Source of the DNA: Dipteris shenzhenensis
Taxonomy: Eukaryota
NCBI GenBank assembly: GCA_047967505.1
Contig: CM106538.1
Length of the DNA stretch: 64,000 bases
Direction: 5' to 3' (one strand)
The position numbers and the translations under genes are program-made. Positions 7,000 to 47,284 of the stretch are shown piece by piece. Under the pieces are notes generated by a model. It saw only the letters and a program-made list of their open reading frames with translations. It was not told the origin of the DNA and searched no databases. The stretch's first letter is position 1, and the number at the start of each line of letters is the position of its first letter.

Positions 7000-9900
7000 G
7001 AGAAAGAAAGAAGAAAGAAAGAAAGTTTATTAAAGTCTTCGGGAGACCGTGAAGGTCTATGAGACTAAAGATAACTGATACAATGAGCATAACGGTGGCG
7101 GTCTCAAAACGGGCCAGCCAACCGTTTCTACAAAAAAGAGGTTATGAAGGACGGTGTGTCTAGTCGTGATACAAAAAATATGTGTCAACCTCCAGATGAT
7201 ACAAAAAAGAAGGGGGGGGCACCAAAAATGGGGCAGAGGGGGGAGATACAATATATATGTGCAGGTGGTGATCGTCAGAGACCAATCATAGAGGGGTCGT
7301 CAAATGGGAGGCCGGAAAAAACCCTGCGATAGATGATTGGCCTCTGACGTCACGCGGCCTAGTCGAGCTCGGTCGTCGGGGGCGGCGGGTGGCCCTGTGG
7401 ATGAGGGCAACGGTAACCCCGGTGGGGTGGGCAGAGAGCAGAGACGAGATGTCATGGACCCGGATGTGTGAGTCTGTCCGCTGGCGTAGCTGTCGTGGCT
7501 CTGGCTCTCGCTCACGTCCGCGTCGTCAGCTAGACTGAGGAGAGGTATCCTGTGACTGGAAGAAATCAGTGATGGGCCGTTGGGTGTCCTCACGTTGTGT
7601 GTGCTGCGCGTGTCGCCGTGCTCGGAGAGAGGTATCTCGATGGCGAGTCATCTCATGTAAGAAAGCGGCTAGGCATCGCTGATCCGGGAACTGCAGCATG
7701 TGTGGGAGGGGGCCGAATCCGTTGCGGAAGAGGCAGTGGTACCGGCCTCGGATGGCATAATAGATAGGACATCTGAAAGCAAAGTGCTCCTCTGACTCGA
7801 TCTCCTGCAAGTCGCAAAGTGGGCAAAGGCGGCCCTATCGTGGGATACCCTCTGCGCGTCCGCTCTCGATCCATAATCGGTGTGACGAAACCCTAAACTG
7901 ACCGAGGGAGATCCGGAGCGCATGTGGTAGATGAAGCTGTGTGTAACCCGGAGGTGTGATGAAGCCCTCCTGTGAGATCTGGAGGCAGTGTCGGTGGTAG
8001 AAGTCGAGCTTCACAGGAAGCTCGGAGTGAAGAAACCATGTCCGCCAGGTGTGGAGCTGGAGCAGATCCGCTCGAATGAGCCGGTTGACCTCCTGGTCAG
8101 TGGGGGAGAGGGGAGATGGTGGAGCGTCGAGGCTGTACTGAAAAGGAGATTCAAACATAGCGCCTACAGATACTGATGTTTGCTCGGGTGATCCGCAGCA
8201 AACCATCGGTACCACACCAGATCATTCTAGCAGAGTTCGGCGCCTCACCCCTACAGCTTGATGCGGCTTTCCAGGCTATTACTTATCTCCACAGAGTCAG
8301 GGATTTCAGCTCCTCCGCGGACGGTCGCCTCCGCCTACCGTACATACCTGCTGGGTGGACCAAAGAATAAAAAAGGAGAGACTTGGTCCGTGGGTCCTGG
8401 AAGTGGGAGTGGTAGCACTGTCGCTCCAGCCTGGCAAGAGCGGCGTAGCCCCGGCTGATCCTAGCCTGCATGGCCGGGCGCATCGTGAAGATCGGGCCTG
8501 AGAAGACAACGCCCAAGTATGTGTAAGAGTCAACTATCTCAACAGGGTCGCCGGCGAAGAGGAACTGCTCTCGGTGCATAGCGGGTCTGAAAGTGTTAAA
8601 GATCATCACCTTGGTTTTCCCAAGGTTGACCTTCAAGTCATGTGTATCACAGAAGACCTGAAGTCCATCCAGGTGTCGCTGAAGACCAGTAGCAGAAGAG
8701 GATAGTAGTACTACATCGTCTGCGTATAGGAGAATTTGGATGACAGCCTCCGCAAGAGAGCAGCCTGCACCTTCGAGTGTCCTGATGGTGGTCTCGAGCT
8801 CGTCGATGTAGAGGCCAAATAGAGTCGGTGACAAGGGACATCCTTGTTTGACTCCGATAGTGCTCGTGATCTCTGGGGTCCAGCTGGTGCCAATCCTGAC
8901 CTGGCCCGTCACCTGCTCATAGAGAGCTACTATTGCCCAGATAACCTCCGAGTCGTAGTCTAACTCCTGCAGGCGTCTGACGAGTCGGGCGCGGGGAACG
9001 GTGTCGAATGCCTTGCGGAAATCCACAAAGCAACAATATACTCTCTGTCTCCTGTGTCTGGCCTCCTCAGTGATCCCTCTAAGTGTAAAAATGTGATCGT
9101 AAGTCGAGTGATCCGCCCTGAAGCCGGCCTATCCGGATGCCCTGAGCCCCTGTACCTCTGCGCGAGCACTGACCTCGCCATCTAACACTGATGCATAGAT
9201 CTTGGACATAACATGTCCAATCATGATGGTCCTGTAATTCCCTGGATCCATGGGATCTCCTGCTTTGTGGATGGGTGTGATAGTGTTCAGGGTCCAGGCT
9301 CTGGGGAACCCGTGGCAGACAGCTTCATTGAACAGTGTTGCCAGGATGGGGGCTAGAGTTTTGATGCCATAGGCAACAAACTCTGTGCATAGGCCCTCAT
9401 GATCCTTAGCTCGGCTGTTGTGAAGCTTAAGCGCTGCGTGGGTGACTCCCTGGGTTGTGAAGAGGGTTCAAGAGGTGGGGCGGGGGGTGGTTGAGAGGTC
9501 GGGAGGAGGCTGATCAGGGATATCATAGAGTGTACGTGCGTAGGAGTGCCAGAGGGAAGTGTCTGTGAGGGGGGAGGGGGATCGGCGTTCTAGGAATTTC
9601 CTCCAGAAATCCTTGGAGTTGCTACTAAACACAATGTTTAGTAGTGTATCCTCATTCTGGCGCAGGAAGGCTAGCTTCTTGCGACGGACTAGTCGACGAT
9701 AATCCCTGATGAGATGTGGGTTGGCCCTAGCGTTTCGCTGGGTCGTGAGTCGGAGTGTGCGGCGTAATGCTTTACACTCGTCATCACACCAGCTATTGCA
9801 AGGGGTGGAGCCAGCGGGTCGAGGGCGGGTGGACCGAGTAGTGGAAGGAAAAATATGGCGGGCTGCATTGTGAAGGGAGTGGGTGATAAGGGTGGCTCGG

Positions 9901-10460
9901 TGATCTAGAGAGGGTATGGTGTCTATGTGTCTGAGGAGGGAGGCTAGGTGGGCTGAGTAATCAGGTGAGAGGTTATGATCAAAGTGTATATCATGATATG
10001 TAGTGTAGTGCGGGGTGTGGCTGGGGGGGCTCGGGGCGCAAGGATATGAAAGAACAGGTAAGTGTGGTCGGCTCCTGGGGGTAATGGTGCAGTGCGGAAG
10101 TCAGTGATCTGTGGGGCTAAAGCAGGAGATCCCAGAATGTAGTCGACGGCACTGGCTCCTCCGCCATGTGGGAAACATGTGAAACCAGAGGAGGCAGGCC
10201 ACCGGTCTAGTCCATTGTAGATGACCAAATCATGTATACGTCCAAGGTCCAAAAGAGCCTGCCCATACGCAGTAACGGGAGCGCGACTGTTTGTCGAGGA
10301 GCGGGGGAAGCCCGAGTCCTCTGTGTCCATCTCAGGTAATAGGACCGGATCTGAGTGGAAGTCCAGGAGTGATGTCTGATGTGCACCTGTCCTTGCGTTG
10401 AAATCCCCAACTAGGAGGACCTCTCTGCGTCTGAGAGTGAGCATAGGCAGTAGGTAGCAG
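7000..10460 (-). mobile_element. RTE-X-like LINE copy 1, 5'-truncated and decayed (APE + RT + C-terminal Cys/His finger, (CTTT)n tail)
   Basis: APE: LLVGDFNARTG, SAVDYIL, GADH. RT: DFRKAFDTV, GVKQGCPLSPTLFGLYID, LLYADDVVL, VNLGKTKVM. C-terminus: ESEEHFAFRCPIYYAIR. Boundaries are approximate. Confidence 0.85.
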
Positions 10461-10735
10461 GAAGGAGGAGGGAGAGTAGATAGGATTAGATGTCACATCA
10501 AAAAGTACCACACAAATCATTAGGGGATGACTTATATAGACCCCCCTTCTTTCTCCTATCTTACCACCAATTTCCCTTCTTTTTCCGACCTATTTCCGAG
10601 CTATTTCCCACCTTCATTACAGCCATCCCTCCCCAAGGAATTTTGCTCTTAAAATTTTATATGTGGGCTGTTAAATAGGTGCAGCAAACAGCAAATAATA
10701 ATCAGCACGGTAGGAGATAGGGGTTGTCCTAGACA

Positions 10736-13324
10736 ATGCTCTCTGGTTGCCATGAGTTCTCATCCTGAGGAAGTCCCCGCCACTTGATAAGATACTCGGT
10801 GTAGACTTTGTTTCGGAGTATGTGAGCCCTGAAACCCATGATGCGCTGCAGAACATAGAGTATGTGGCCCTCTTCATCTGTAGGTGGTAGCTCAGGAAGG
10901 ACTTGGACATGCTGTCCGACATGTGGCTTCAGCAAAGACACATGGAAAACATTATGAATCTTGGAGGTCCTGGGTAGCTCCAACTCATATGCCACCTCAC
11001 CAACTTTGCGGATGATTTTGTAGGGACCGTAATACCTATGAGCAAGCTTCGTGTTGGTGTTACCTTTCAGCAAGGCATAACGGTTCTTATGGAGGTGTAA
11101 GTGCACATAATCCCCTTCTTCAAAAGACAGATACCTCCTGTGTTCATCCGCATACTTCTTCTGCTTGGCTTGGGCATCTTGCATATTCGTTTTAGCCAAT
11201 TGCAGAAGGGCATCCATACTCTCCAAGTCATTTCTTGCTTGCTGATTTTTCACAGCCATGTCTACAACTAAAGATGGCATACCCACTGTGCATCCATACA
11301 TAGCCTCGAACGGGCTCATACCAATAGAGATGTGCTTGGTACTGTTGTAACAAAATTCAGCAAGTGCCAACCACTTATCCCAAGACTTCTGTGTGTCATG
11401 ACAAAAATGCCTCAAATACTCCTCTAGCCATTTAAATGTTGACCCTTTCCGACTGTCCATCCATCTTAGGGTGGTAAGCAGTGCTAGGTGTAAGAGAAGT
11501 GCCCACTGCTGTAAATAACTTCTGCCAAAAGTGACCCATAAATTTTGCATCTCTGTCGCTGACAATCTCCCAAGAGAAGCCATGATGCTTAAAAACATGC
11601 TCGATGAACTGCCAAGCAACCTGTGATGCTGGATAACGGGTCTTAGTGGGTATGAAATGGGCCTGCTTTGTCATTCTGTCAACCACCACAAAAATGCTAT
11701 CCCATCCCCACTCTGTGGAAGGCAACCCTGTGATGAAATCCATAGCAATGTGAGTCCATTTGCCTTCTGGAATAGGTAATGGCTGCAAGAGACCCGCTGG
11801 TAACCGGCTGTCCACTTTATTCTGCTGGCAAGGCAAACACTCAGTGACAAATTTAACGACATCCCGCCACAAGCCATCCCAGATAAAGCTCTGTTTGACC
11901 TTTTCATATGTCGTAGTAATGCCCGCATGTCCTGCCATAGGAGATGAGTGCATTTCCTGTAAGACCAGCAGTTGATACTTTGAATCTAGCACCAAATAAA
12001 TTCTGTCCTTGCACCACAACAGCCCATTATGCAGTTTAAATTCAGCATGCCCCTGGCTCGATGGCCTCTGTAACTCCACAAATATGGAAGCTGCCTTAGA
12101 ATCCTGCATGTATTCTTCCTGAATACCATGAAACCACTCTTGATAGATGGTAGAAATGGCAGACAAACTGCAAGCCCACATACGGGATAAGGCATTTGCA
12201 ACCACATTTTCTTTTCCTTTCCTGTACTCAATGTCAAAATCATAAGAGTGAACCTTATCCAGCCACCTCTTCTGCTCTATTGACAAGTTGGGCTGTGTAA
12301 GGAAATACGTGAGTGTCCTATGATCTGTCTTAACCTTGATTTTGCTACCGTACAGGTAGTGGTGCCATTTTTCGAAAGCATGGAGGATAGCCAACATTTG
12401 CTTGCCTTAGCACAGCCCCTAATCTTTTGCCACTGGCATCTACCTCCATAATGAAAACACGTGAAAAATCAGGGCATACCAACACATGAGCATGAGTGAG
12501 GGCAAATTTCAGGTCTTCAAAGCTGCACTGTGCATCTGTAGACCACATAAAAGCATCATTCTTCAAAAGGTCTGTTAGAGGGGCTGCTCTCTTGCCAAAC
12601 TTGCGAATAAAGCGTCTGTAGAAGGAAGCAAGATGTAGAAATCCCCTCAACTGAGTAGGGTTGCGTGGTTGCGGCCAATCCTCAATACATTTTACCTTTG
12701 CAAGATCCACTCGAATGCCATCCTTGCTAACAATGTGACCAAGATACTCAACCTCTTGTGCCATAAAAGTGCATTTGCTGGCTTTAGCATAAAGCTGATG
12801 CAACCTCAAAATTTCCAGCACTTCTTGACATGTATGATGTGCTCCTACTTATCCTTGCTGTAAATGAGGATGTCATAAAAAATTTCCAGCACATATTTGA
12901 AAAGGAGAGGCTGCAAAATCTTGTTCATGAGTGCCTGGAAGGTAGCTGGTGCATTGGTCAATTCAAAAGGCATCACCTTGAACTCATACAGTCCCCTCTC
13001 CGTGCGAAAGGCTATCTTGTGCTCATCCCCAACTTTCATTCTAATCTGATGATAGCCGGACCTCAAATCAATCTTAGTGAAAAACTGATCACCCTTGAGT
13101 TCATCCAACAGGTCATCTATCCTGGGGATTGGAAACCTGTTCTTGATGGTGACCTTATTCAAGTCTCTATAGTCAATGCACATATGGTAAGAACTGTCCT
13201 TCTTCACCAGGAGCACAGGGGATGCAAAAGGAGAAGTGCTATGAGTGATGAAACTTTTCTGAAGTAAGTCCCTCACTTGAGTTGCCACTTCCTCCCGTTC
13301 TACCTTAGAGAGTCGGTATGGGGC
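10736..13324 (-). mobile_element. Ty3/Gypsy chromovirus pol remnant (RT-RH-INT-chromodomain), frameshifted
   Basis: [71 protein letters not shown] motif RYYGPYKI. Chromodomain EYLIKWRGLP...SW. Confidence 0.92.
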
Positions 13325-14030
13325 TGTTGGAAAGGTCACCTCCCCATCTGTAAGCCCCCAAATGAGGAGAGCGTGGGGGAGGGAGACCTAGGGCAGAAGA
13401 TGCCTAGAGAATAGAGAGAGAGGGGGCTGCCACATGGGCAGCACCTCACAAGAGAAGAAGGCTGCAACAGATGGCGCGAATTACAGTGCAGATGGCGGGG
13501 ACAGCAAGATCTGGAGAAGATACATTATATGGACTTTGAACCAAACCAGCTTCTCTCTCTCCTCTAATCTGGGATATGAACATGGGCTTTAGATGCGAAA
13601 ACAAGAAAATGCTCAATTGCAGGCTTTTTACTTGAATAAGCCACCTCTGGCATAACTCCTTCATGTGCTCTCATCTTTGTCCTGTTGAAACCGGATGATA
13701 TAGTCCACTGTCGAACGGCCCCATCCCAGTAAATCCTTCTCAGGATCATTACCGCCAACATTCTTCTTGCCATTTCCATAATTACTCGGTTCTTGCTCTC
13801 TGCCACATCATAACTGTCATTTGTCTGTTGATACACCTCTGCTTGTAGAATGCTATGAACTCCTTACCAACATACTCTCCAACTCTGTTAGTGCGAAGAG
13901 TCTTCAATTCGTGTCCTGCCCTTCCCTTGGGATTTTTTCATTCCATCCTATGAAGAGAGTCTTGATCTTGAAGTCCCTTCCCTGGTCGCCTCCTTTGTTG
14001 TCATTGTCATCAGATAAGGATGTGACTTAG
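13325..14030. mobile_element. Rearranged Copia debris: + strand LTR 5' fragment (13325-~13445) fused to minus-strand integrase/gag remnants
   Basis: 13325 TGTTGGAAAGGTCACCTCCCC matches the LTR family start. Minus ORF 13564-13836 has AESKNRVIMEMARRML and FASKAHVHIPD (Copia integrase). Confidence 0.6.
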
Positions 14031-18650: not shown

Positions 18651-19291
18651 GATTATCCGAGCAACACTCAATGGAGTTATACTTGAATGAATGTTTTTTT
18701 ATGGAATATCTTTTTTTAAAAACCTCAATCGACAGCTCTCATATTAGCTGCATGCATGTACCAAGGTACAAAGAGCCAAAGACATATACCCTTGGTTTGA
18801 ATGCTCTCATGATGCAATTGTGTGTATTATATTTGCACATTCATTGTATTTTCTATAAGCCTCAACATGCCAACAAAATTAGGACTAGTGGCATTGTTCA
18901 CTTTTAAGTAGATATGCTTATTAATACCTCCCCTCAAGCTTGTGAGATTGCCAACAATTATTTGTTTTTAGTCTTTCGAAACTCAATAGAGGGATGGATA
19001 TATATTTTAACAATCAAAGATGTAAACTATGAATTCACCTAAAAATTCAAACCTAAAAATTACAACTTGCCATACATTTCCAAAACAACTATGACATGTT
19101 CATATTATTAGGTCAAAGACCATTAAAATCACATGATTCAGAAGCCATAATCTATCAATCCATAAGAAGTTAAGGTTTGCATAAGAAGGTAATGGCTATC
19201 CATCCATAAGAAACCAGGTCTACATGAGATGATAATGAAAACATGAGAAATTAAGTTTTGCATCAATCCATAAAAAGCCAGGACATGCTCT

Positions 19292-22200
19292 CTAGACCTC
19301 ATCAGCCAAGTCATCTATGTAGTCTAGATGCCCATGATGCCTCTCCACCAACTCATAATCGAATGTGCTATCTCCTGCCATTTGGGTAGCCACATCTTCT
19401 GCATAGCAAGGCAGAACACTAAGCTCAATTAGTCAGTATCTAACCATGCTTAAATTATACACATAGATCAAATAAATTACTCACTAATCAAGAGGTGCAT
19501 CAAAGTCATAGTCTGTCTCCTCATCATCTATCATGAGGACTGCTTGATTCACACTTGAAGGCCCTGCCTCTGTGAAGTTGTCTCTAAGCATGCCTTCTAA
19601 GTATCCTGTGCAAATCTCTTTGTCATTGTCCACTGCCATGCATGGACGTCCTGAGTGAATTGCTGCTTTCATCCCAGGTGCTGTACCTGCACCAAGCTCA
19701 AGCACAGAGCCTCCAATCGGACACAACAACTCCATGAACATCAACATCATGGAGCTACTCTTCTCCAACCCACCACGCCACTGTCCACCCTTTCCCTCTT
19801 TTATGCACCGTACACTTGAAGGCAAGTAATGAGTGATGAAATAATTGTCCATGCACACCTTAAGGGATTGGGAAACTTTATTTGCCCTATCAAGATAGTG
19901 ATGTGCCTTCTTGCCAATCCTAGAGAACAATAGGATTTGAAAGGCAGTAATCTACATAAAACATAGATTGAAAAAGTTAATGGAGAATACTAAAATACGA
20001 ACAAACAAGAACATGACAATCATGTAAATAGCCAAATGACATACCTTGACACCAAAGCCAACATTATCCGCAACATCAATGCAATCTCCCGTCTCCACGA
20101 TCCATCTACATGTACTAACTATAAGATACCAATAGCTGAATGCAATTCACATAAACAGACATTATCAACTGTGATATATTGCTCACCTACAAGAAACCTC
20201 TAGTCTCATTTGTCTTGCCAAACGCTCAACGAATGAAGTGGATACAGGTGAACACATCACCAATGTCCATCCATAATCATCCATCACAGATGAAGCAATA
20301 GCAAGTGAGCATGAGATATGCTCCTCATTTAGAATGTTCCATCCAGGGATTCCACCCTTGATTCCACTCACTATTGATCCTGTAGGAAGGTCAATCAAGC
20401 AAAAATCCACACTCCATGCAGCATTTTTTCCATTGCGTGACTTCTTCATGCCACCAAGTTCATGGTAAAAATTTCTTATGATTTGAAAAGCCCCATCATA
20501 CTTGTATTGCTTAACTTCTTTTCCAAGTGATACATAATCATACTCCCAAACTTTGTAGTTCTCTTGTGAGATACGAGTTGCAAATGATGAGAAAGTGGAC
20601 AAAGGAACATAAACCATATCCGTATTACACACTTTCTTGCTAAGAAGAGACTCCTCCTTTCGTGGATCATTGTCTACAATAACAAAGAATCCTAAATTAA
20701 ATTTGTAGGAAGCTTCTAATCACTTTGAAACATGAAAGAAAGAGTTATAAGAAAATAGACCTGTGTTAGAAGTGCCCGTTGGTTTAGGTCTTCCACCTCG
20801 TTTGTTATTTGGAGTCACATGACTTGCCTTTTGCTTTTCTACTATTGCTTTTTGCTCCTCTTCAAGCCTCTTCTTTTGTGCCTCATCCATGTTGCCCGAC
20901 GAACCCGAGTTTGACTTGCACTCACCTTTTAAATGGCGATCATAAGTTTCCTTCTCTTCCTCGATACATGTTCCAGCCTTCATCTCGATCCACCAAGGGC
21001 AGTGCTTCCTTTCCCACTCCGTAAGCAATATATGACCATCCTTATGCTTATTCTCTCGAAAAATATGAGAGGTGTACATGCAATAAGTAGCAGGTGCAAG
21101 CATAGTCCAAGCCTTGCAAATGGATGGTACCACCTTAAGACTCTTATTTGCAGCCAGATAATGGAGATACCTAAATGATTTTTAGGATAATATAAGAGAA
21201 TGCAAGGTATTACAAAGATATCTTTCAATTGAAAACGAAAGCCAAAACGCACCTGTAAACCAATCGTCTGCTGGCATTTGTAAGATCAACTTGCTTAGAT
21301 GGAACAACAGCAACTGTCATCAATGAAGCAAAAGGCTCAAACAAAAAAGGCCTGTGTCTCACTATAATGCCATCAAAGTATTCCAGAATAGAAGGACTGT
21401 CTGGAAGTGTAGCTGCACCCTCAATGCTTGATGATTTCATCACTTGGTCAAGCAATCGCCCAGCATCTGCCAACACATGGTCCATCCATACTTCTTTTGC
21501 AAGCCAAGGTATGAAACCATGGTCAGTCATAGGCATCCCATAACTCTCCTTTAGATTGTCATCTGCACCAAGAAGAGAAAGAATAGATAGTTGCTTTGCC
21601 TTGGAACAGGTTGCAATTGATACTTGGTAAAGCTTCTCCAAAGTGATCTTCATTGATGTATCCTCAAATGGTAAATTCCAAAGGATATTAAACCACTCCT
21701 TGCCATGGGAAGTATTGACTATTGAAAGCATCTGCCAAATAGTAAAGTTTTAGAAGAGACTTTGATACACACAACAAACCATATATTAAGGTTTTCAAAG
21801 TACAAACTAAAAATTTGCAAGTTGTAACTATAGATTTATAATTTTCAAATCATATATTATGGTTTATGAGTTGTAAAATTAGAATTTGAAAACTATAAAT
21901 TCAAATTTGCAAACTATAAATTCAAATATCTGAGATATAAAACGTAGAATTTTGTGGACTACAAATTCAAATTTGTGATCTATAAATACAAAATTTGGTA
22001 AATTGAAAACTTACCCGTGTAATTTTTCTTCGATATGTTGCTCCCACAGTCTTTTTAATCTCATGAATCTTGGACTCTCTCTCATCCTTTGGCATGGAAG
22101 AATGCAATTTCTTGCATTGAGCCTCAAAATCTGATTTCCATTTCCCCTTTCAACATAAACAGATAATCTCATCATAATGTTATTGGAACACAAAGCAAAG

Positions 22201-23345
22201 TCACAAAAAAAGAAAATATATAAACTAAAGAACTAATACTTACAGCAAATACCATCCTCCCAAGAATAGTTTGGGTGAGGGGATACCACACCCTTCGTCC
22301 ACTTCCAATCTCTTTCTGTCTTGCCAACTCAATAGCTTTTTTCTCCTCCTCACTAAAATCCTGAGTAAAATATTGAGCATCACAAGATACGAGTGTGCTT
22401 GTGTGGTACAAATAATCCTTGAGATTAGTAACAACAATTGCATCTTCATTAAGCCTGCAACCATTGACTTAAATGGATCAAAATTGGTTTCATTTACAAG
22501 CACTTACCATCTCAATATAGAAAACATAAACAACAAGGCTTACAAGTTAAATCTTTGCAGAGCAGCAACAAGCTTAAGCTCATCCTTTGCTTCCGGTTCA
22601 ATAACTTGAGCTTGCACTCTAATGTGTCTAGACTTGATATTTGTGTAAAGCTCTTCTATGCTTTCCATCCAAGATGCTGTACGATGATTTCCTTCCCACA
22701 CGAAGAACATTTTGTTTGATAGAAAGCTCCATGGTGTGCCAATTATCTCTGATTCAAACTCATCATTAACTAAGCTCCAATTCTTGTCCCAACGTTCTCT
22801 TGTGACATCATCAACATCCTTCGAAGACCCATCAGGCATTTTGATAGATAGAATAAAAGATCCTTTTGTCGGAATGTATCCCTCTATTTCAAATGCTCTT
22901 TTCAAAATGGTCAAATCATTCCTAATTTGACGCACAACTGGGTTTATGAGACAACGACACAAGGGAATTCGAGGAGGTGGAATTTCTTTAGTTACTGTAA
23001 GAAGCTCTAAAATATCTGCACCTGAAGGTCTCTCAACACACTCTGGAATGATATCCTCCACATCATCTTTAACTCCTACTTTGTTGGATGGTTCATCTAT
23101 AGTTTTATCCTTGTTGTCCTCAGGATCCTCAATATCATTTTCAATGTCAACTTGCTCAAGCTCCTTCAGTTCATTCTTGACCTCTGACTCTTGCTTCTTC
23201 CTTTTGCCACCTTTCCTTGTGATAGGACTAGACACATCACGTTTCTTTCTCTACACATTTGAAGAACTCAATTACAAGATTTGCAAAAATGCAAAGGTGA
23301 AATGCAACTAGAAAAAGAAAAAGAATCCAAACTTACTGGAGGCAT
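19292..23345 (-). CDS. Cargo gene: ParB/Srx-like domain + beta-class amino-methyltransferase-like domain, ~1029 aa, 10 exons
   Basis: Model: complement join 23345-23337, 23250-22544, 22454-22244, 22146-22015, 21731-21253, 21170-20761, 20673-20187, 20105-20045, 19951-19485, 19418-19292. All introns are GT-AG, phases are consistent, 3090 nt, no stops. It starts MPPRKKR (NLS-like). ParB-like FFVWEGNHRTASW. MTase motif IV-like VDFCLIDLPTG, then motifs X-I-II EKSSSMMLMFMELLCPIGGSVLELGAGTAPGMKAAIHSGRPCMAVDND. The last exon is less certain; the alternative stop is at 19484. Confidence 0.8.
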
Positions 23346-23789
23346 TTGTTGCACAACTTTCAATAAGCTCACCTGCACAAGAAGAAAAACAAATAAATGA
23401 CATAGTGAAACCATCTTTGAAATGATTAAATGAAAAATGACAGAGTGTAACCATCTGAAAAATGACAGAGTGAAGGCACGGGAGAAATTCAGCTGAACAG
23501 AAGAAAGCATGGAAATTCAGACTGATTCCCAAAAAAGAAGCGTAAGGAAGCCAAGGCTATGGTGAGTGGAGAAGCGTAAGGAAGCCACAACAACAGAAGC
23601 GTAAGGAAGTGAGTGGAGAAGCGAAAAAAGAGAGACAAGAAGGACTAGCGTTGGCGAAAAAAGAACTAGCGTTGATTAATTTCTTTGCGTTGTTGATTAG
23701 CTTGGACAGAGAGACAGGTGAAAAGGAGCCTTGGTGGTTAGCGTGGATGGAGAGATAGGCGGAAGCGAGCCTTGGAGGGAGAGGGAAGG

Positions 23790-23950
23790 AGAGAGACAGG
23801 AAGGACGAGTGATGAAGGGAGCATGGAGAGAGAGGAAGGACCGAGTGATGAAGGGAGCATGGAGGAAGAGGAAGGACGAGTGATGAAGGGAGTATGGAGG
23901 GAGAGAGAGGAAGGACTGAGTGATGAAGAGGAAGAGGAAGGACTGAGTGA
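23790..23950. repeat. Purine-rich ~35-bp tandem repeat, probably in the cargo-gene 5' UTR
   Basis: Repeated GAGGAAGGAC(C/T)GAGTGATGAAGGGAG(C/T)ATGGAG units. Confidence 0.8.
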
Positions 23951-23952
23951 AC

Positions 23953-24004
23953 ACTAGTGAACACTAGTTTCGCTGGCGAAACTAGTTTCGCCAGCGAAAC
24001 TAGT
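23953..24004. repeat. Palindrome cluster 1 (two overlapping 24-bp palindromes) upstream of the cargo gene
   Basis: ACTAGTTTCGCTGGCGAAACTAGTTTCGCCAGCGAAACTAGT at 23963-24004. Confidence 0.95.
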
Positions 24005-25542
24005 GAACGAAGGGATTTATGAGACTTTGCACAGGACAAACGAGCGACAAGGGAGACTGGCTCGCCAACTCCCCCCCCCCAAAACTATCAAGACTTTATA
24101 AAAACTAGAGTCGAAGTGGCTGCCCGTCCTGATATCTTGAACGCTGGCGATGGATAGGCAGGGGTGAGTCACATGTTCAAGCAAGGCCATCTTCTCTCAG
24201 CGAACATTCCGACAAAACGTGACGAAGGTCAAAATGAAGGCGCAACTCAAGATCTGAGGCCAACGCGCGAACTATTCACGACTTTGATGATGAAGAGGAC
24301 TAAGATTGATGGCTTGATAAAAAATAAATCTGTGATGCTAAATCTGAGTGAAAGATCTCGCTTTTGATCGTTGCTACTTGTTGACGAATTCTCTGTTGTG
24401 GTATGGATCACCTGGGAATTTCTAGAGCAAGAGTTATCCTTCAACCTAGTTGCGCAATTTGAACGCCTGAAGCGCCTTGATTCATATTGGTGCCTCTACC
24501 TTTTGATTTGGTGCAAGTAATGCTTGCAAGTTGATTGCTTCTTACCAAGATTGCGAGACTTCGCCAAACAAACTCAAGCTCCCCCGAATCATGTTGGTCA
24601 GAGTCTACTACCTTCTTCTAGCACCTCATTCTGACAGAAGATGGGGCAGTGGTTGTAGCTCTCCGCTCTAACGTGATGCATGTGGGTCTCTAGTGTTTAG
24701 ATTCAAGTTTTGGCTCAGAGCTTGGAAGCAACATCGTGCTGTGTTTTAATGACCTTTTTCGAATAGAAATCTGAGAAGTTTCTCGAATTCATGAAGTATT
24801 GAAAGAATGCACTCGTGACTTGCACCATTTCTAGCGACAAAAGAACACAGGATTAACACTTGCAATGAAATAGAACGGGAACTTGCAGGCATTTGCGAAA
24901 TAGAAAAACACAGAAGCTTGCGAAACGTGCGCAGATTGCACGTTACAGAACCGGGAGAGACGCCACATCATCGTTCAGAAATACAGACAGAATGAACCTC
25001 CGTTGACGGAAATACAAACAGAATGAACCTCCGTTGACGGACGAAAATTTTGTACCACGGTTCGACTTTGTCTGATGTTGCGCTCTTTGGAATTTGGAGG
25101 AGAAGCTTGCACAAGAAGATGTTGCGCTCTTTCTGTGGCAGACAGGTAGCCAACTTCATGCGAGCCGTCTGCGTATTGCAGCTTAAACGAGCAAGACTTA
25201 GCCGAGTATTGAAGCCTGAGCTGTTCAAGCAGAGGGGGGACGTGCACGGCACCCGCTTGTAGGAGGAGGAGTGGGCGGGGCGAAAGAGCGGGCCACGGAG
25301 GTCACACGGTTTGCAACTAGGCGAGCAGCCGGTCCAACAGAGCTCGCTACCGGTGTCGAGGGTGAAGATGAGCCGACGAGGGCAGAGAGGTAGACTTCGG
25401 TGCCAGAATTGTCGAGGTAGGAGACATGACCTAAGATAGGAGAAGGGCGGTGGGAACGGCGAGGGCGTAGGCGTTTGCGAAGCGCGAGACCGGAGGAGAC
25501 GAAGTGATGGAGGGGGGAGTCGGGGGGGAAGGAGGCGAGAAC

Positions 25543-26075
25543 ACTAGTGAACACTAGTTTCGCTGGCGAAACTAGTGAACACTAGTCTAGTTTCGCCAGC
25601 GAAACTAGTGTTCACTAGTTTCGCTGGCGAAACTAGTTCGCCACTATTTTCAGTGGGAACTAGTTTCGCCAGCGAAACTAGTGAACACTAGTTTCGAAAC
25701 TAGTGTTCAGAACTAGTTTCGCCAGCGAAACTAGTTGTGAACACTAGTTTCGAAACTAGTGTTCACAACTAGTTTCGAGCGAAACTAGTGAACACTAGTT
25801 TCGAAACTAGTGTTCACAACTAGTTTCGCTGGCGAAACTAGTTGTGAACTTCACCACTGAAAATAGTGGCGAACTAGTTTCGCCAGCGAAACTAGTGAAC
25901 ACTAGTTTCGCTGGCGAAACTAGTGGCGGAAACTAGTGTTCACTCACTAGTGAACACTAGTTTCTACACTAGAAACTAGTGTAGAAACTAGTGTTCACTA
26001 GTGAGTGAACACTAGTTTCCGCCACTAGTTTCGCCAGCGAAACTAGTGTTCACTAGTTTCGCCAGCGAAACTAGT
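25543..26075. repeat. Palindrome cluster 2: dense array of ACTAGTTTCGC(CA/TG)GCGAAACTAGT forming nested long inverted repeats
   Basis: About 10 full copies plus short ACTAGTTTCGAAACTAGT variants. Perfect inverted arms at 25587-25656/25854-25923 and 25886-25972/25976-26062. Confidence 0.95.
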
Positions 26076-26351
26076 GAAGGCGTAGGCATTGGCCCGAAAA
26101 GCATTATGAAAACTAGCATCCCTAAGAATTTGACAACAGACACAAACAGATTACGGGCAAAACCGACCCGCCAAAATATTTATACTTCAGAGGAAATACC
26201 TGCAACGTGTAAACCTTCTCGCCATTTTCGTTAGTATAGTACATGAGATACATGATTGCAGACTGTTAGAAACAAAACGAAACATATTAGAGATAGCAAA
26301 CTAGAGAAAACTCAAACTAACGACGGCAGGAAACACAACAGATGCTCCTAA

Positions 26352-26892
26352 CGAAACTAGTGAATACTAGTTTAGCTGGCGAAACTAGTTCGCCACGCCA
26401 CTAGTTTCGCCAGCGAAACTAGTGAACACTAGTTTCGCTGGCGAAACTAGTGAACACTAGTTTCGCTGGCTAGTTTCGCCAGCGAAACTAGTGAAGGCGT
26501 AGGCGTAGGCGTGGGCGTAGGCGTAGGCATAGGTGTAGGCATGGACGTGGGCGTAGGCGTAGGCGTGAGCGTGTTCACCGAAACTAGGCGTGGACGTGGG
26601 CGTAGGCGTGGGCGTGGGCGTAGGCGTAGGCGTAGGCGTGTTCACTAGTTTCGCCAGCGAAACTAGTGCCAACGAAACTAGTCTTCTCTGCCTCCCCTTC
26701 TCTTTCTCTTTCTTTGCCTCTGCCTCTTCTTCTTCCTCTCCCTCTCCACCCTCCTTTCTTCCACTTCCGTTTCCCTTCGACCTTCCTCCTTCGCTTAGTT
26801 TCGTTTTTTCCGCCCCATTTAGTTTCGCCAGCGAAACTAAGTTTTGAACTCCAAATGAAATGGCCTCCAATAGTGTTTCGCTAGCGAAACTA
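26352..26892. repeat. Palindrome cluster 3 with interleaved (GGCGTR)n hexamer repeat, upstream of the transposase
   Basis: Copies at ~26367, 26400, 26428, 26470, 26644, 26820 and 26874. GGCGTA/GGCGTG runs span 26496-26640. Confidence 0.92.
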
Positions 26893-27378: not shown

Positions 27379-30300
27379 ATGGATTTTGCAATTGTGTCCA
27401 ATGACAATAGGTCGAAGACACTGCAAGTTGCAACAACGAATGGTGTTGCACGCATTAGTAGGGAATACCTTCACTTAGCATTTGGACTTTCACCGAGCTC
27501 AATCTCTTTGCATCAACTACTTGATAGCAAGTGTGACGACTTGTCCTTTGAGGTTCCCTTTGTAGGTGAGGAGTCCTTGTTTCATCTTGACACTCAGTTT
27601 GGAACCACCTTCATTGTTAGAGGTGTAAAGCTTTTGACAGAAATCAGTAAGGAAGTGTCGGATAAAAAACAAGTAGATGAACAATCCGATAAGACCATGA
27701 GTTTGGTTCCTCTCTTGAAAAACCTTCCTGCAAGAAGTGCACTCAAAAAAGCTATGGACATTGTAACAACAATACAAGAAGTTGATGCACTTCCAGTAAA
27801 GTATGATGGCAATATTTTGTTTGAGCTTCCCGCTTCGGACCTCCCTAACCGTGCTGAGGGGACAGAAACCAAATACGACAGCCATGTTTGGACGGATGAT
27901 ATAACAAGTAATATGACAGGATTTGATGGTTTAGTTAGAATTCGAAGATGTGGTGGGCATCTACAATGCAAAAACATATTTTGTCCTTACTTGGAGAGAA
28001 CCAAAGAGGCCAATGAGAAGCATTGGCAAGGGAGACTTTCACGAGTGTGTCCTCAAAGATCATATGTTGGCGAAAATAGTACTCTTAAGTGTTTGCATTG
28101 TGGTGCTCGTCCTTTCTGCGAGCAAGAGTGCCCATGTAGGCTATTCTTATGTTACCCACACCCCAAGGGTGATACACAATTTAAGAGGTGTGTTATACAC
28201 TCAGGGTATCATTTGCATCCCGTTGGTGAAGGAAGTTCTAGAGGTGTTGTGAAGGAAGTTAAGGCTAGGTTGACTAAGCTCATACAAATAGATGGGATGG
28301 GAAGACCTAAAGCCTTGCAAAAAACATTAGCAAAGAAAATAATATTGGATGCCGTCATTCAAGATGATCCGAAAGCCATGAGTGATGCTGAATTGACATC
28401 CTTACTAGAGAAGATTACTCCAACTTTGGACAAGAGAAGGTATGTGCATACTTGTCCTTTTAATGTGATTAAAAGTACTCAAGTTTTTTTGAAAAATAAG
28501 TAATGGGATTTTGATGCTACATGTTCTTAACTGTAGGCTCGCACGTTGGAAAAGGGAGGCCCAAATTGAAAGTGGATCCTTTGCAGATGGTTATGATGCT
28601 CTTTTACAACTGAAAAGAAAGTGTGTATATGATTATTTTCAGAGCATGGTGTTCCCTGGACAACTTGAATTTTCTTCATTTGAAAGATGTCATGTTTTCA
28701 AGATGTCTACCAAGGGACATGGTAGTGGTGTTGATCTAGTGAACAAGATGAGGCCAGGTGGAGAGTTAGGATCGTGCTGGGTTTGCTTTGATTTTGTCAA
28801 ACGTATGCATGATTGGAATACAATGGCATGCCATGTTTACAACCCTTTTGTTCAAGAGCTACAGACTATTGCTATTGGGGATTTCAAGGTTGAGGATACA
28901 GAAGCCCAGATCCTTTTTTGGGAAATGTTAAATAGAGTCATGGAGAAGGAGGGATTCCCAAAGCCTCAATTTAAAGGGTTTATGGCTGATGAGGCACAAG
29001 CAAATTGGCGTGCAATTAGAATGGTATTCAATGGTGATGCCAATAAGGTGCTCAAAGAAAAAGAGAGATCTTGCTTATTCCATTGGGAGCAAAGCTTGGA
29101 AAACCATGCTAAGTTCCTTCCATCATTTGATCGTGAGGAGTTCAAGCTAAGGTGTAGACAGTGGAAGAATGCTCCATCTCAAGAAGCTGCAGACATCGAG
29201 TTGAAAAACCTCCGTTCGTGGTTCAAGCATCATGCACATAAGAAGGACATCTCCATTTTAGAAACATGGATTGTGTGGTGGCATGCAAGAGTGGCTCATT
29301 GGGGAGAATACATTCTCAAGGTAGGTCTATTGTTATTTCATTCACAACTTTATTGTTTTTTGATTATTGGAAACTAATCTATGTTGTGGCACAGGGCATG
29401 GAGGGATCTGACCAGTTTTTAGTTCCTAGAGCCAACCTTGCAGAGTCAGTCCATGGAAGTTGGTTGGCATCGAATGACGGAGTGAAATATGTCACACTAA
29501 AAAATGCTTGTGAGACAGATATGACGGGTGCTTTGCTGCAAACTGCAAGATACACAGAATATCTAAAGGGACTACACTTGGGTTGTGGACCTAGTTTGGA
29601 AAAGCTATCTCGAAGGCACTCTTATGGGGACATAGGGAGCAACTCATGCAAGTTCATTGATCTCAGTAATGAGGTGGCTAGCAAGGTGGATGCAACTATT
29701 GGAGGTCAAGATTGTATGGGTGATTTGAAGACTGTGAGAAGGAAGCGGTCAAAATCTTTCTCAGAAGCAGTGTATGCAAATGATTCACATCGTCCAGAAT
29801 ACCAGTATGTAAATCAGCCAAGAAAGAGAAAACAAAATACCACGCCAATCTTGAAAACAAATCAATATGTTGAAGAAGAGGTAGTACACAAGACTATGTG
29901 GGCTATAAGAAGAACTAATGCAAGTAGTGAGGTGAGGTGTCAAGGATACTTAGAGGACAAAGGAATCAAATGTCACAAATTGATAGATCACAAGGGTAGG
30001 ATGGGAAAGAGAGGTGTTCCTGCACCTAGCTTTTTTGGGAGAATCAACACCAAAGCAGGCATTCGAAGGCAATTGATTTGGTTTTGTGGGGATAACATGG
30101 ACCACACATGGACACCATCAAATTGCATTGAAGGAAAACCACCTGAGGTGCCGAGGGAGTGGCCTATTGAGAAAGGGACAAGCCTGGATGAGGAAGAAAT
30201 GAGGTTATTAGTAGCTGGAGGATTTAGATTAAAAAAGCAATGCACTAGGGCCAAATCTGCTGATTTAACAAGTAGACCGAGCACAAGGGATGGCATGGTT

Positions 30301-30660
30301 GTGGAATGGGTAACTGAGGTGACATGTGAAATGAGAACAAGGATAGCTAAGTCTATTTCCTTGGAATGTGTTGTTCACAGTGTTAATATAGTTGTCCCTA
30401 GAGAGCATGTGGAGTACCTAGTTTCCACTCCAGGATCACGTAGAAAAGGGAGCAAGTACAATGTTGTGGTTTCAGTGTTTCCATCATGCACATGTCTGGA
30501 CTTTATGGGCCATTCTCAAGGGCAAAACAGATATATCCCATGCAAACATCTGTATTACATTTATATGCAATACTTGGGTCTAGATGAGAAGATACACATG
30601 TTCATTCACCAATCTGCACTAAGTAGGCAAGAACTCTACCAAGCTCTACCTGCTTGCTAA
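27379..30660 (+). CDS. MULE-type DDE transposase with N-terminal Cys/His (GCM/WRKY-like) finger and C-terminal SWIM finger, ~1036 aa, 3 exons
   Basis: Model: join 27379-28439, 28537-29320, 29395-30660. GT-AG introns, 3111 nt, open. D1 WVCFDFVK, D2 FMADEAQA, CxxH motif CLFH, catalytic E in NLAESVH, SWIM CTCLDF...PCKHLYY. The start codon is inferred. Confidence 0.88.
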
Positions 30661-38927: not shown

Positions 38928-41241
38928 TCACAGCCCCTCCGCCTCCCTAGCCCCTCCCCCTCCCTCAGCCCTTTCTGCTGTCGCACCAGCCCCCCCGCAC
39001 CCCCCTGTGCTATCGTGCCAACCCCCCTACTGTCACATCTCCTCTGCTGCCCGTCATCTCCCGTCCACCATCCTCTGCTGCACGTCATCTCCTCTGCTGT
39101 CGCTGCTGCAGTGCCTGCTGTTAGTGGGCAGGACTCTAGGCCTACCGCAGGCCTCTAGGCTTGGCCATAAAGCAGCTGAGTTGCTGCCTTAGGCCACGAG
39201 CAGCTGCGCCAGCTGTCCCAGCAGTAGCGAGCAGATGCGCCTGCTGCTCAGCTGCCCTCAAGCCTGCTGCTAGCCTTGGGCTAGTACTAGGTATCCCTGC
39301 AGCCCATTGGCCCTACTCGAGGCTCCCTCATGGCCTAGCTCCACAGCTCCGCATCAGCTACAGGCGACCTACAACACACCAAGATCAAGAAAGACCCACA
39401 ATCAAGGGGAAAAGGGGAGGGATCTTGTGCAAGAATGTAAGATCAATATTTCTCTACAAGGGGTTTTTTCTTCAAATCTACTTTGCACTATGCCTACACG
39501 AGGGTGTGTTGAGGACATTTGGGGAAAACAAGCCTTGGAATCTGCTCTGACAGCCCTCTCGAATGGGACAGCCCACAAAGGTACCACTGAAGTGCTCACA
39601 TGCCTCAACAAAATATGTCTCATGCTAATTGAAAAAATAGACAGCCTAGAGGCCACAAATGTGGCCTTATTGGCTGAAAAATCCCATGTTGACAAGACCC
39701 TTGCTGAGTTTAAAAAACAGGGAGGGAAAATACAAGAAGAATGGAGGAAAGAAAGGCCAAGAAAGAGGACTGGGAACAAGAAAAAACAGCATGGATTAAT
39801 GAGAAGGTAAAGCTCCAAGACAAGATGCATTTGTTGGGGTAAGTATGATCAAGGGCTTGCTCTATGGTGCATGTGTGCATCTAGGGGAGTCACATGTGTG
39901 TTTGTGTGTGTTGTAAAGGCACATCAAGTGCTATGATGTGTCTAGTGTGTGACCTAAGTGATGATGTAAGACAAAGGCAATCCCACTGATGTAGGGATTG
40001 ATTCCCACTGACGTAGGGGCTGATTGCCACTATGTAGGGAAGGTATTACCTTCTCCCCCTTTCTATAAAAGAGAGTCTTCTCTCTCACAATCAATATAGA
40101 GATTTCATTGTGCTCTCACACCTCTTGCAAGATGCATCTATTCTATCGTATGGGATCCTACAATTGGTATCAGAGCTTTAGGTTCTAGATCTAGCCTAGC
40201 CTAGCATTAGATGCTATCTCTAGCATAAACTACAAGTTTCTTCATCTTCTCCATTTTCGTCCTTCTTCCCAAAATCTTTGAGAGCTCTGTTCTCTGCCTA
40301 CAAACGACCATTGCCCAAACCCTCTGAGCTGCAAACTCCTCTTGTATGGGCGAACTTCCAGCTGCAAGCTTTTGGTGAAATTTCGACTGTATGTGAAATG
40401 CCAACACTCACACTCCCTGACGCCTTTTCTTGCAATGCGACTTGCTGGAGCAGCCATTCCAAAATTCCTCTGAGCCAAGCTTGCACAACAGTATGAGCTA
40501 GCTCCTGTCCAGATTTGAAGGGAAATGGTCCACCAGGGAGGGAGAAACAGCAAAAAAATCAGTCGACTTTCAAGCTGCTGGACGTGACGCGGCATTTCGC
40601 CTCTCCTTGCTGGTAGCCCTTCTCTGGTATAAGGCTCTTCTTCTTGCATAAAAATCCCCTTGAATAGAGCTATGAGCTGTGAGAATTGCACCCTCCAAGT
40701 TTTGGTCTCTGTTTTGGACAGTTTTGACAATGTTGTGAGTTTGATGCTACATTAGATGCTACTTTAGCATTTCTGATGTTTTAAAGTGTTGAATAGCTTC
40801 AGTACAACTATGGCTACAGCTTTGCTTTAAGTTGCTACACCTGGATTTGCTTGGAATGCTTTCATTTAGCCACCTCTATGAAGCATGCAAGTGAAAGCAT
40901 CATTTCCATTATGTTTTGTAGTATGGAATTTGGTTACAAGCCTTTGCTATTCTAAATGCTTGTATTTTGAAGCTCTTCAACTCTTTCTAGCCTTGTAAGA
41001 GAGTAGACATTGCCCATTTTGGGTTAGACCCTCTCATGGCTACCATCTTGAATATGGATAAGTTCAATGGTAAAGGCTTTCACACATGGCAGATGAAGAT
41101 TAAGTTTGCATTGATGAGGGAAAACCTCTGGGGGCTTGTCAAACCTGCTTCAACTACTTCTTCAACAGCCTCTAATGCTGGAGAATCCTCAGCTCCGACA
41201 CATCCGACAAGAGATCCTGCTAGAGAGGAGAAAGCTTAAGT

Positions 41242-47200: not shown

Positions 47201-47284
47201 GTACGGTGTACTTAGTGTACTTAACAAATAAAGTACTAAGTGTACTAACTGTACTTGGGTGGCCATAGAGCCTTTACCCCAACA
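41242..47284 (-). mobile_element. Full-length Ty1/Copia element (gag-pol with few disruptions) nested in the TR-GAG gag
   Basis: LTRs at 41242-41466 and 46968-47284. PBS reverse complement GCTCTGATACCA at 46954-46965. PPT at 41467-41478. TSD GCTTA/GCCTA. ORFs 45617-41514: CYYCGKKGH, WIIDSGAS, LVHTDVC, RSDNGEEY, LYVDDML, RNase H TTEAEY. Confidence 0.95.
41514..45617 (-). pseudogene. Copia gag-pol polyprotein, interrupted near 44874, 44445 and 42915
   Basis: Consecutive ORFs 44874-45617, 44440-44790, 42915-44450 and 41514-42914 follow the order gag-PR-INT-RT-RH. Confidence 0.9.

Follow-up and report, generated by a model that had tools for sequence, protein, structure and literature searches.

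Our study revealed an intact, transcribed gene of ten exons in the nuclear genome of the fern Dipteris shenzhenensis, located on the minus strand at positions 19292–23345 of a 64,000-nt stretch (hereafter, the window) of contig CM106538.1 in GenBank assembly GCA_047967505.1. Its predicted product comprises a basic N-terminus, a domain of the ParB/Srx fold, a long middle region and a C-terminal domain with a beta-class methyltransferase fold, and it is very likely that the two folds are parts of one protein. The best overall explanation is that the gene encodes a ParB-guided, S-adenosylmethionine (SAM)-dependent DNA amino-methyltransferase, to which we assign a probability of about 0.5. The family to which it belongs has no name so far and is common to ferns and liverworts. 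No description of a family with a ParB-like domain and a methylase in these plants was found in the literature, supplementary tables being outside the search.

The gene model was placed and checked by script. All nine introns run from GT to AG and are 66–283 nt long, and the joined frame of 3090 nt contains 1029 codons plus a stop codon with no internal stop. This reproduced exactly the frame of the original prediction, which had been made from the letters of the window and had likewise described a eukaryotic multi-exon gene, a view that the ten-exon model supports. Eight long stop-to-stop open pieces lie between 19292 and 23250. Every large exon was matched in order by fern proteins in tblastn searches, and the product of exon 2 alone matched Adiantum proteins at expectation (E) values of 1e-63 to 4e-34; the ordered matches and the E value of 1e-63 argue that the model is not a product of chance.

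Exon 1 (23337–23345) consists of the start codon and two further codons, ends at a GTAAGT donor and is required because the frame of exon 2 begins straight after the acceptor AG and offers no methionine before the conserved domain. Exon 2 (22544–23250) encodes basic clusters that form a candidate nuclear signal, an acidic stretch and the ParB/Srx-fold domain with its WEGNHR box (22698–22669). A basic cluster precedes the acidic part, the first 80 residues holding 22 D/E and 17 K/R, and the ParB-like block with WEGNHR lies at residues 188–197. The middle region begins in exon 3 (22244–22454) and continues through exon 4 (22015–22146) and exon 5 (21253–21731), its best-conserved part, which is 55 % identical to the Adiantum protein P0003. 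Exon 6 (20761–21170) contributes a CPWW block (21001–20990) and then a charged linker, and ends at a weak donor, GTCTAT. The first half of the methyltransferase fold is encoded by exon 7 (20187–20673), with an N-terminal hairpin, strand 4, the DLPTG loop (20410–20375) and strand 5 (20284–20249), and is followed by exon 8 (20045–20105), of 61 nt. Exon 9 (19485–19951) carries a motif X-like helix (19780–19757), a motif I-like ELGAGT loop (19705–19673) and a motif II-like acidic strand end (19639–19622), and exon 10 (19292–19418) encodes an acidic C-terminal tail and the stop codon. The motif IV-like loop thus falls at residues 738–749 and the motif X-I-II-like blocks at residues 890–942. The order of acidic N-terminus, ParB-like domain, middle of about 400 residues and methyltransferase had been read correctly by the original prediction, and the residue positions agree.

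The middle region between the two domains spans approximately 400–450 residues, is conserved and matches no known family. In the ESM Atlas the best score for this region of P0003 was 0.82 against a bar of 0.9, with a structural template modelling score of ≤0.34, and clusters of DUF6551 and DndB were obtained as leads only. Within intron 4, a 42-nt AT-rich unit recurs as five imperfect copies at a spacing of about 21 nt (21771–21992), and these copies account for the length of this intron, the longest of the gene (283 nt).

The N-terminal domain was assigned by structure. For the exon 2 product of the window itself, AlphaFold gave a model with a predicted local distance difference test (pLDDT) score of 85, rising above 90 over residues 75–235. 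When this model was compared with the PDB by Foldseek, ParB, Noc, KorB, Srx, SbnI or PadC accounted for 26 of the 32 matches listed, with probabilities of up to 0.99. An exhaustive VIA search returned just 12 of 48,161 chains at Z≥2, the highest scores being those of KorB (7.3), PadC (6.8), a serine kinase (6.0), pNOB8 ParB (5.9) and Srx (5.7). The 12 chains are titled ParB, KorB, PadC, Srx, SbnI, serine kinase, SspE, BrxU, Atu1540 or Dnd-system; we take them all to share the ParB/Srx fold, without vouching for 2hwj and 9jfl. The viral library BFVD again yielded ParB-like proteins (best E 4e-3). An alignment of 79 family sequences gave the consensus IPLCR...VWDGNHRL.AW, in which the phosphate-binding G-x-x-R box is conserved; the window reads WEGNHR, and W[DE]GNHR made up 61 of 66 occurrences of the pattern W[DE]GNxR. 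On the strength of the predicted structure we therefore consider a ParB/Srx fold to be highly probable for this domain. The branch of the superfamily, whether clamp, kinase-like or nuclease-like, is not told apart by Z scores of 5.7–7.3.

The C-terminal domain was modelled on P0007, a relative of 412 residues, with a 35-row alignment, because the domain of the window is split over exons 7–9. P0007 is 38 % identical to exon 7 and 34 % to exon 9. Its model gave 188 Foldseek matches at E≤0.001, including CcrM at 3.6e-13. Ranks 1–42 were all occupied by beta-class DNA methylases or type III Mod proteins, the top group including M1.HpyAVI, M.BceJIV, MboIIA, RsrI, PvuII and the bdelloid N4CMT, and METTL3 first appeared at rank 45. 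VIA gave high scores for CcrM (Z 20.5, 234 residues aligned, root-mean-square deviation 3.6), M.BceJIV (20.2) and MboIIA (19.7), with PvuII and bdelloid N4CMT each at 18.6, whereas the MT-A70 clade scored lower at 12.6–14.6 (MTA1 14.6, METTL3 13.4). Residues 113–385 of P0007 align sequentially to CcrM and M.PvuII, which indicates that the permuted order, with motif IV before motifs X, I and II, is shared with the beta-class enzymes. Within the model, a strand at 166–172 leads into the DLPTG loop and one at 341–345 into a GAGTG loop, and an acidic pair ends the strand at 362–367. At the level of sequence patterns, the SAM loop of motif I (ELGAGT, residues 917–922) and motif II (AVDND, 938–942) are both kept from ferns to the liverwort Riccia.

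Sequence comparisons agreed with this assignment. Three of four Riccia proteins (P0156, P0158 and P0159) scored 26.2, 23.7 and 24.8 bits against Pfam PF01555 (N6_N4_Mtase), for which the gathering cutoff is 26.7. When P0158 was searched against phages by tblastn, all 15 weak matches fell on one region and 13 of the 15 were annotated as methyltransferases. Three of these phage genes are true members of PF01555 (84–94 bits), and hhalign aligned the plant family to them with a probability of 92.6 % (E 4.5e-7) over 65 columns of the motif X-I-II segment. Judged by the P0007 model, the C-terminal domain is a permuted beta-class Rossmann fold of the prokaryotic N6-adenine/N4-cytosine DNA-methylase type.

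A number of findings at the level of the domains weigh against our explanation. For the N-terminal domain, Foldseek returned no match at E≤0.001 in either PDB or BFVD, and the structural matches are weak in absolute terms, with a best Z of 7.3. The model of the C-terminal domain is that of a relative 34–38 % identical, not of the window's own protein. Pfam ParBc gave no match, and PF01555 stayed below its cutoff, in the window exon products (0/8), the Adiantum proteins (0/5) and the longer relatives (0/52). The DndB profile matched 3 of 79 family members faintly, with a best E of 0.066 that is below significance, and neither the ParB-like family profile nor P0003 alone found anything relevant among PDB sequences. 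The methylase profile reached M.RsrI at E 0.17 and M1.HpyAVI at E 0.31 in the same library, which is not significant. The original prediction had named a ParB-like domain and a beta-class methyltransferase, to be checked against PF02195 and PF01555. The former stood by fold (model, Foldseek and VIA) and the latter by motif order and by the fold of P0007, while neither profile recognized the gene; the objection it had allowed for, that both profile and structural similarity to these families might be lacking, is answered by structural similarity in both domains.

Whether the domain transfers methyl groups turns chiefly on motif IV. In the window this motif is D-L-P-T-G (residues 744–748), which departs from the canonical (D/N/S)-P-P-(Y/F/W), and the family mostly reads D-[LFM]-P-[TS]-G (DLPTG 13, DFPTG 3, DMPTG 1 and DMPSG 1). 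In known amino-methyltransferases the motif IV aromatic stacks on the target base; in most members of this family it is replaced by threonine or serine. This substitution joins the points against our explanation and is the main reason for doubting activity. The phage relatives in PF01555 read D-I-P-Y, so that a hydrophobic second position occurs in genuine enzymes and the plant DLPT departs at the aromatic position only. Activity is favoured by the conservation, from Riccia to ferns, of the SAM elements and of the whole D-x-P-[TS]-G loop, and by at least one member, P0152, whose motif IV aligns as DLPF. Taken together, we regard SAM binding by the C-terminal domain as somewhat probable, and place real DNA methyl transfer by the protein slightly short of even odds.

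A C-terminal domain that keeps the fold, and perhaps SAM binding, but performs no transfer could serve as a DNA or chromatin adaptor, an enzyme partner or a SAM sensor, much as METTL14 and MTA9 are thought to act as non-catalytic methylase folds. Besides the missing aromatic, this is suggested by a divergence so large that PF01555 misses all fern copies and by an hhalign alignment that covers the X-I-II segment and not the motif IV half. Substitutions of this kind have a precedent in the methylase domains of DIRS1, which are described as probably inactive in the available sections of PMC4738411. However, Riccia and ferns alike retain the acidic strand end as well as the D-x-P-[TS]-G and G-x-G-T loops, none of which a mere scaffold would need, and P0152 has an aromatic residue in motif IV. 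We consider such a pseudo-enzyme unlikely, though not markedly so. The further suggestion of the original prediction, that the family is a possible reservoir for plant N4-methylcytosine (4mC) and N6-methyladenine (6mA) enzymes, found no support, as its loop is DLPT(G) rather than (D/S)PPY and the Marchantia enzyme MpDN4MT1 carries a canonical TSPPY according to the available text of 10.1101/2021.02.12.428880.

If the gene does encode a ParB-guided amino-methyltransferase, the protein would be directed to the nucleus by its two basic clusters, which are encoded in exon 2. Its ParB-like domain could then bind nucleotide and/or DNA and so hold the protein on chromatin or on the DNA of its own element. 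The C-terminal domain would be expected to bind SAM through its G-x-G-T loop and acidic strand end, both of which ferns share with Riccia, and may methylate the exocyclic amino group of a base in DNA via an atypical loop, D-[LFM]-P-[TS]-G. A more specific scheme, which we think rather improbable, is that of a self-propagating fern and liverwort family in which a nucleotide-dependent clamp of the ParB type delivers a DLPT-loop methyltransferase that writes 6mA, 4mC or a non-canonical mark. Should it hold, eukaryotes would have acquired DNA amino-methylases from prokaryotes independently for a third time, and for the first time in association with a ParB domain.

Splicing and transcription were assessed by aligning sequencing runs to 19100–23500. 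These were X1 (contigs 95–99 % alike), X2 (six contigs, all at least 99 % alike), X5 (RNA-seq by record; 27 reads aligned) and X6, from which no read aligned on this interval; the RNA type of X1 and X2 is a guess. Introns 1, 2, 5, 7 and 8 were skipped at precisely the modelled bounds in X1, X2 or X5 alignments. For intron 1 this is seen as a 23250>23337 joint in an X1 contig, with 86 nt skipped and CT..AC on the plus strand; intron 2 was removed in X1, and introns 7 and 8 in both X1 and X2, with one RNA read from X5 adding to the evidence for intron 7. One X1 contig of 760 nt skips introns 3 and 4 at the lengths given by the model (97 and 283 nt), the aligner placing them 1–2 nt off because one mismatch adjoins each junction. 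The X2 contigs (≥99 % identity) cover exons 2, 4, 6, 7, 8 and 9. X1 depth falls to 0 within intron 4 (bin 21746–21892) compared to 18–19 in the adjoining exons, which fits transcripts and not genomic DNA, with processed DNA copies as a formal possibility. RNA confirmation of all nine junctions had been proposed by the original prediction; seven of the nine introns were found removed in transcript-like contigs or reads, leaving introns 6 and 9. For intron 9, X1 showed only a differing, non-GT-AG skip of 118 nt, so that the modelled intron is unconfirmed.

Intron 6 (20674–20760; 87 nt) is the sole link between the ParB/middle and methyltransferase halves, and contains an in-frame TGA at 20722–20720. 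If it were normally retained, translation would stop there and yield a ParB-plus-middle protein of about 660 residues, with the methyltransferase exons untranslated or confined to a minor isoform. In keeping with this, the intron was met only in unspliced form, in record 3 of X1 (958 nt, gapless over 20213–21170) and in four X5 reads, and was never skipped in any run; no spliced read of the kind that the original prediction had looked for joins the ParB and methyltransferase exons across it, and its GTCTAT donor is the weakest of the nine. These observations also count against a two-domain enzyme, as does the state of the copies from which they come. In the X1 copy the acceptor of intron 6 has changed from AG to CG (20675 T>G) and two CpG-type CGA>TGA changes create nonsense codons at 637 and 654 (20662 and 20800). 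The X5 reads carry variants inside the intron at 20688 and 20690, and three of four show a 4-nt insertion at 19683 in the motif I region. At least two other transcribed copies (X1 and X5) are therefore broken, and for that reason they tell little about intron 6 of the intact window copy, while X2, the only run at least 99 % alike, has no cover at 20587–20764. A rough ratio of nonsynonymous to synonymous substitution rates (dN/dS) of approximately 0.35 against the X1 copy, based on 37 coding differences among 40 of 75 differences, indicates only moderate constraint, which again does not favour our explanation.

Separate halves would leave unexplained why the exons downstream of intron 6 stay open for 380 codons with all family motifs kept, and why relatives encode both halves in one frame. 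Both are present in a single annotated protein in P0003, P0005, P0008, P0158 and P0148 from Adiantum and Riccia, and P0150, an open reading frame (ORF) on a contig of 2298 nt, reads through the equivalents of exons 6–8. The continuity of the two halves is thus supported indirectly by its relatives, and we judge regular retention of intron 6 to be very unlikely.

An exhaustive search with P0003 (Adiantum; 958 residues) found 284 representative clusters at E≤1e-3, of which 150 were covered, and 30 proteins were looked up. Those of the 30 that could be attributed to a species all came from Adiantum capillus-veneris, A. nelumboides or the liverwort Riccia sorocarpa, with no seed-plant relative among them, and the remainder were contig ORFs. 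The proteins of the family are labelled 'hypothetical', and UniRef names some of the Riccia proteins 'trimethylguanosine synthase'. Nine proteins of A. capillus-veneris, many of which are partial, are spread over eight chromosome-scale contigs, and in two annotated proteins (P0004 and P0042) a Ty3-type gag runs into the ParB-like domain. The family is therefore multi-copy, dispersed and partly decayed, and occurs in ferns (two Adiantum species and the genome of the window) and in the liverwort Riccia. In one further A. capillus-veneris protein, P0029 (1176 residues), a NIF/FCP1-type phosphatase domain (Pfam NIF, E 2e-12) replaces the methylase after the ParB-like and middle regions, and this fusion is either a real alternative or an annotation run-on.

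Taken together, dispersed partial copies, gag run-ons and broken yet transcribed copies are typical of a family that is selfish or was amplified recently. The original prediction had gone further and described an old acquisition maintained on a transposon, which is not shown by our data: no direct or inverted repeat pair, whether long terminal repeat (LTR) or terminal inverted repeat, brackets the gene within the window, and 41 short ORFs in its flanks had no Pfam match, leaving no transposon protein domain within ~4–6 kb. Only the multi-copy decay points in that direction, and the chances that the gene is carried by, or behaves as, a selfish element are evenly balanced. A host gene family that was domesticated and spread by ordinary duplication, with a role for instance in the chromatin of gametes or spores in plants with motile sperm, would account for the nine spliceosomal introns, the intact frame, its transcription and the lack of adjoining terminal repeats or transposon domains, as well as for the presence of the family in two distant land-plant lineages. 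It accords less well with the scatter of often partial A. capillus-veneris copies, with broken copies that are still transcribed at 1–5 % divergence, with the joining of Ty3-type gag to the ParB-like domain in P0004 and P0042, and with the lack of seed-plant matches among the species-attributed members of the 30 proteins. We hold this host origin to be a reasonable possibility that falls below an even chance.

Compared to known systems, the C-terminal domain most resembles the beta-class enzymes of PF01555 (CcrM, M.RsrI, M.MboIIA, M.PvuII and M1.HpyAVI), with which it shares the permuted fold over ~200–234 aligned residues at Z 17–20.5, the motif order IV, X, I, II and a segment of helix plus G-loop that can be aligned by profile. 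It differs from them in ending a protein of 1029 residues and ten exons, in giving no PF01555 match that reaches the cutoff and in having threonine or serine for the aromatic. The MT-A70 clade (METTL3/METTL14 and MTA1/MTA9) likewise consists of permuted Rossmann methyltransferases and includes inactive partners with a degenerate motif IV, but is structurally more distant than the bacterial type. The N-terminal domain shares its fold, and a box of the G-x-x-R type with a preceding histidine, with the ParB/Srx superfamily, which comprises the cytidine triphosphate-dependent clamps ParB, KorB and Noc, sulfiredoxin, SbnI/serine kinase, DndB and DUF262 ('DGQHR'). Unlike these, it gave no significant profile match, and no helix-turn-helix domain or partner was identified in the fern protein.

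A ParB domain linked to a methylase, the architecture on which the original prediction had drawn, is also found in phage-type systems, which we take to be of the kind labelled 'ParB + N6_N4 fusion'. Like the fern gene, these phage and prophage systems, which include ParB-terminase loci and ParB-methylase fusions in the available sections of PMC4738411, place a ParB fold N-terminal to a beta-class methylase; unlike it, they lack the conserved middle of 400–450 residues between the domains. Phage kinship was probed in BFVD (best E 4e-3, with one 'DNA methylase' at rank 22) and by tblastn of the ParB part against phages, which gave a single match at E 6. Descent of the fusion as a unit from phage fusions is not shown, and no specific phage relative was found.

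Among eukaryotic enzymes, the bdelloid N4CMT (PDB 8s9m) and MpDN4MT1 of Marchantia resemble the fern gene in their beta-class fold, as measured for N4CMT (Z 18.6), in having introns and in a patchy spread that includes liverworts. N4CMT bears a chromodomain, in contrast to the ParB-like domain of the fern family, and MpDN4MT1 differs in its motif IV. Prokaryote-type methylases that are multi-copy and partly decayed in eukaryotes are also known from Dam-carrying LTR retrotransposons, as described in the available text of 10.64898/2026.05.21.726589, and from the methylase domain of DIRS1. The retrotransposon enzymes are, in that text, of the Dam type, part of polyproteins and found mostly in unicellular hosts, whereas the fern gene is beta-class and has nine introns. 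As far as these partial sources extend, the family is distinct from both the MpDN4MT1 type with TSPPY and the Dam type on retrotransposons.

DNA amino-methyltransferases of the prokaryotic type are a rarity among land plants; few N6-adenine methylases are recorded there in the available sections of PMC4738411, and MpDN4MT1 was the only plant 4mC enzyme that we met in the literature. Standard domain annotation misses the present family entirely, despite its beta-class DNA-methylase fold, ParB-like domain and transcription. An active protein would represent a new source of DNA marks other than 5-methylcytosine in ferns and liverworts, as selfish or domesticated epigenetic machinery, and an inactive one would be a clean case of reuse, with a methylase fold serving as binding module.

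Several mobile elements occupy other parts of the window. A Ty3 chromovirus remnant at 8286–13387 (minus strand), with reverse transcriptase (RT), RNase H, integrase and chromodomain, lies downstream of the gene on the same strand, and no LTR pair was found for it. A copia element is present at 31.5–34.4 kb and a piece resembling a long interspersed nuclear element at 51–52 kb. A copia-type retrotransposon at 39830–48511 (minus strand) has the sole clean LTR pair in the window; its 300-nt ends (39830–40129 and 48212–48511) are 100 % identical, it contains long gag, integrase and RT frames at 41517–45668, and it looks like a very recent insertion.

A transposase-like gene at 27379–30648 on the plus strand lies 4 kb upstream of the ParB-methylase gene and is divergently transcribed from it. 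It has three exons and encodes about 1050 residues, in which a Cys-rich block and an 'ADEAQANW...CLFHWEQS' core are accompanied by a SWIM-like finger at the C-terminus, for which the Pfam match is weak (E 0.044). Its relatives are 640–1058 residues long, lie on transcript-size contigs and have no Pfam domain. The two neighbours have no similarity to each other, and a linkage between them is not shown. Between them sit a TAXi_N open frame at 24971–25543 (minus strand; xylanase-inhibitor/aspartic-protease N-terminal, E 9e-12), which is a gene fragment or a captured piece, and a block of nested palindromes at 25521–26670. The latter is built on a unit of ~28 nt (ACTAGTTTCGCCAGCGAAACTAGTGAACACT...), of which one copy lies at 23949–24007, and has arms of up to 100 nt that are 98 % complementary. 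Tandem repeats of 6 nt of the GGCGTA type, at 26482–26657, adjoin the palindrome block.

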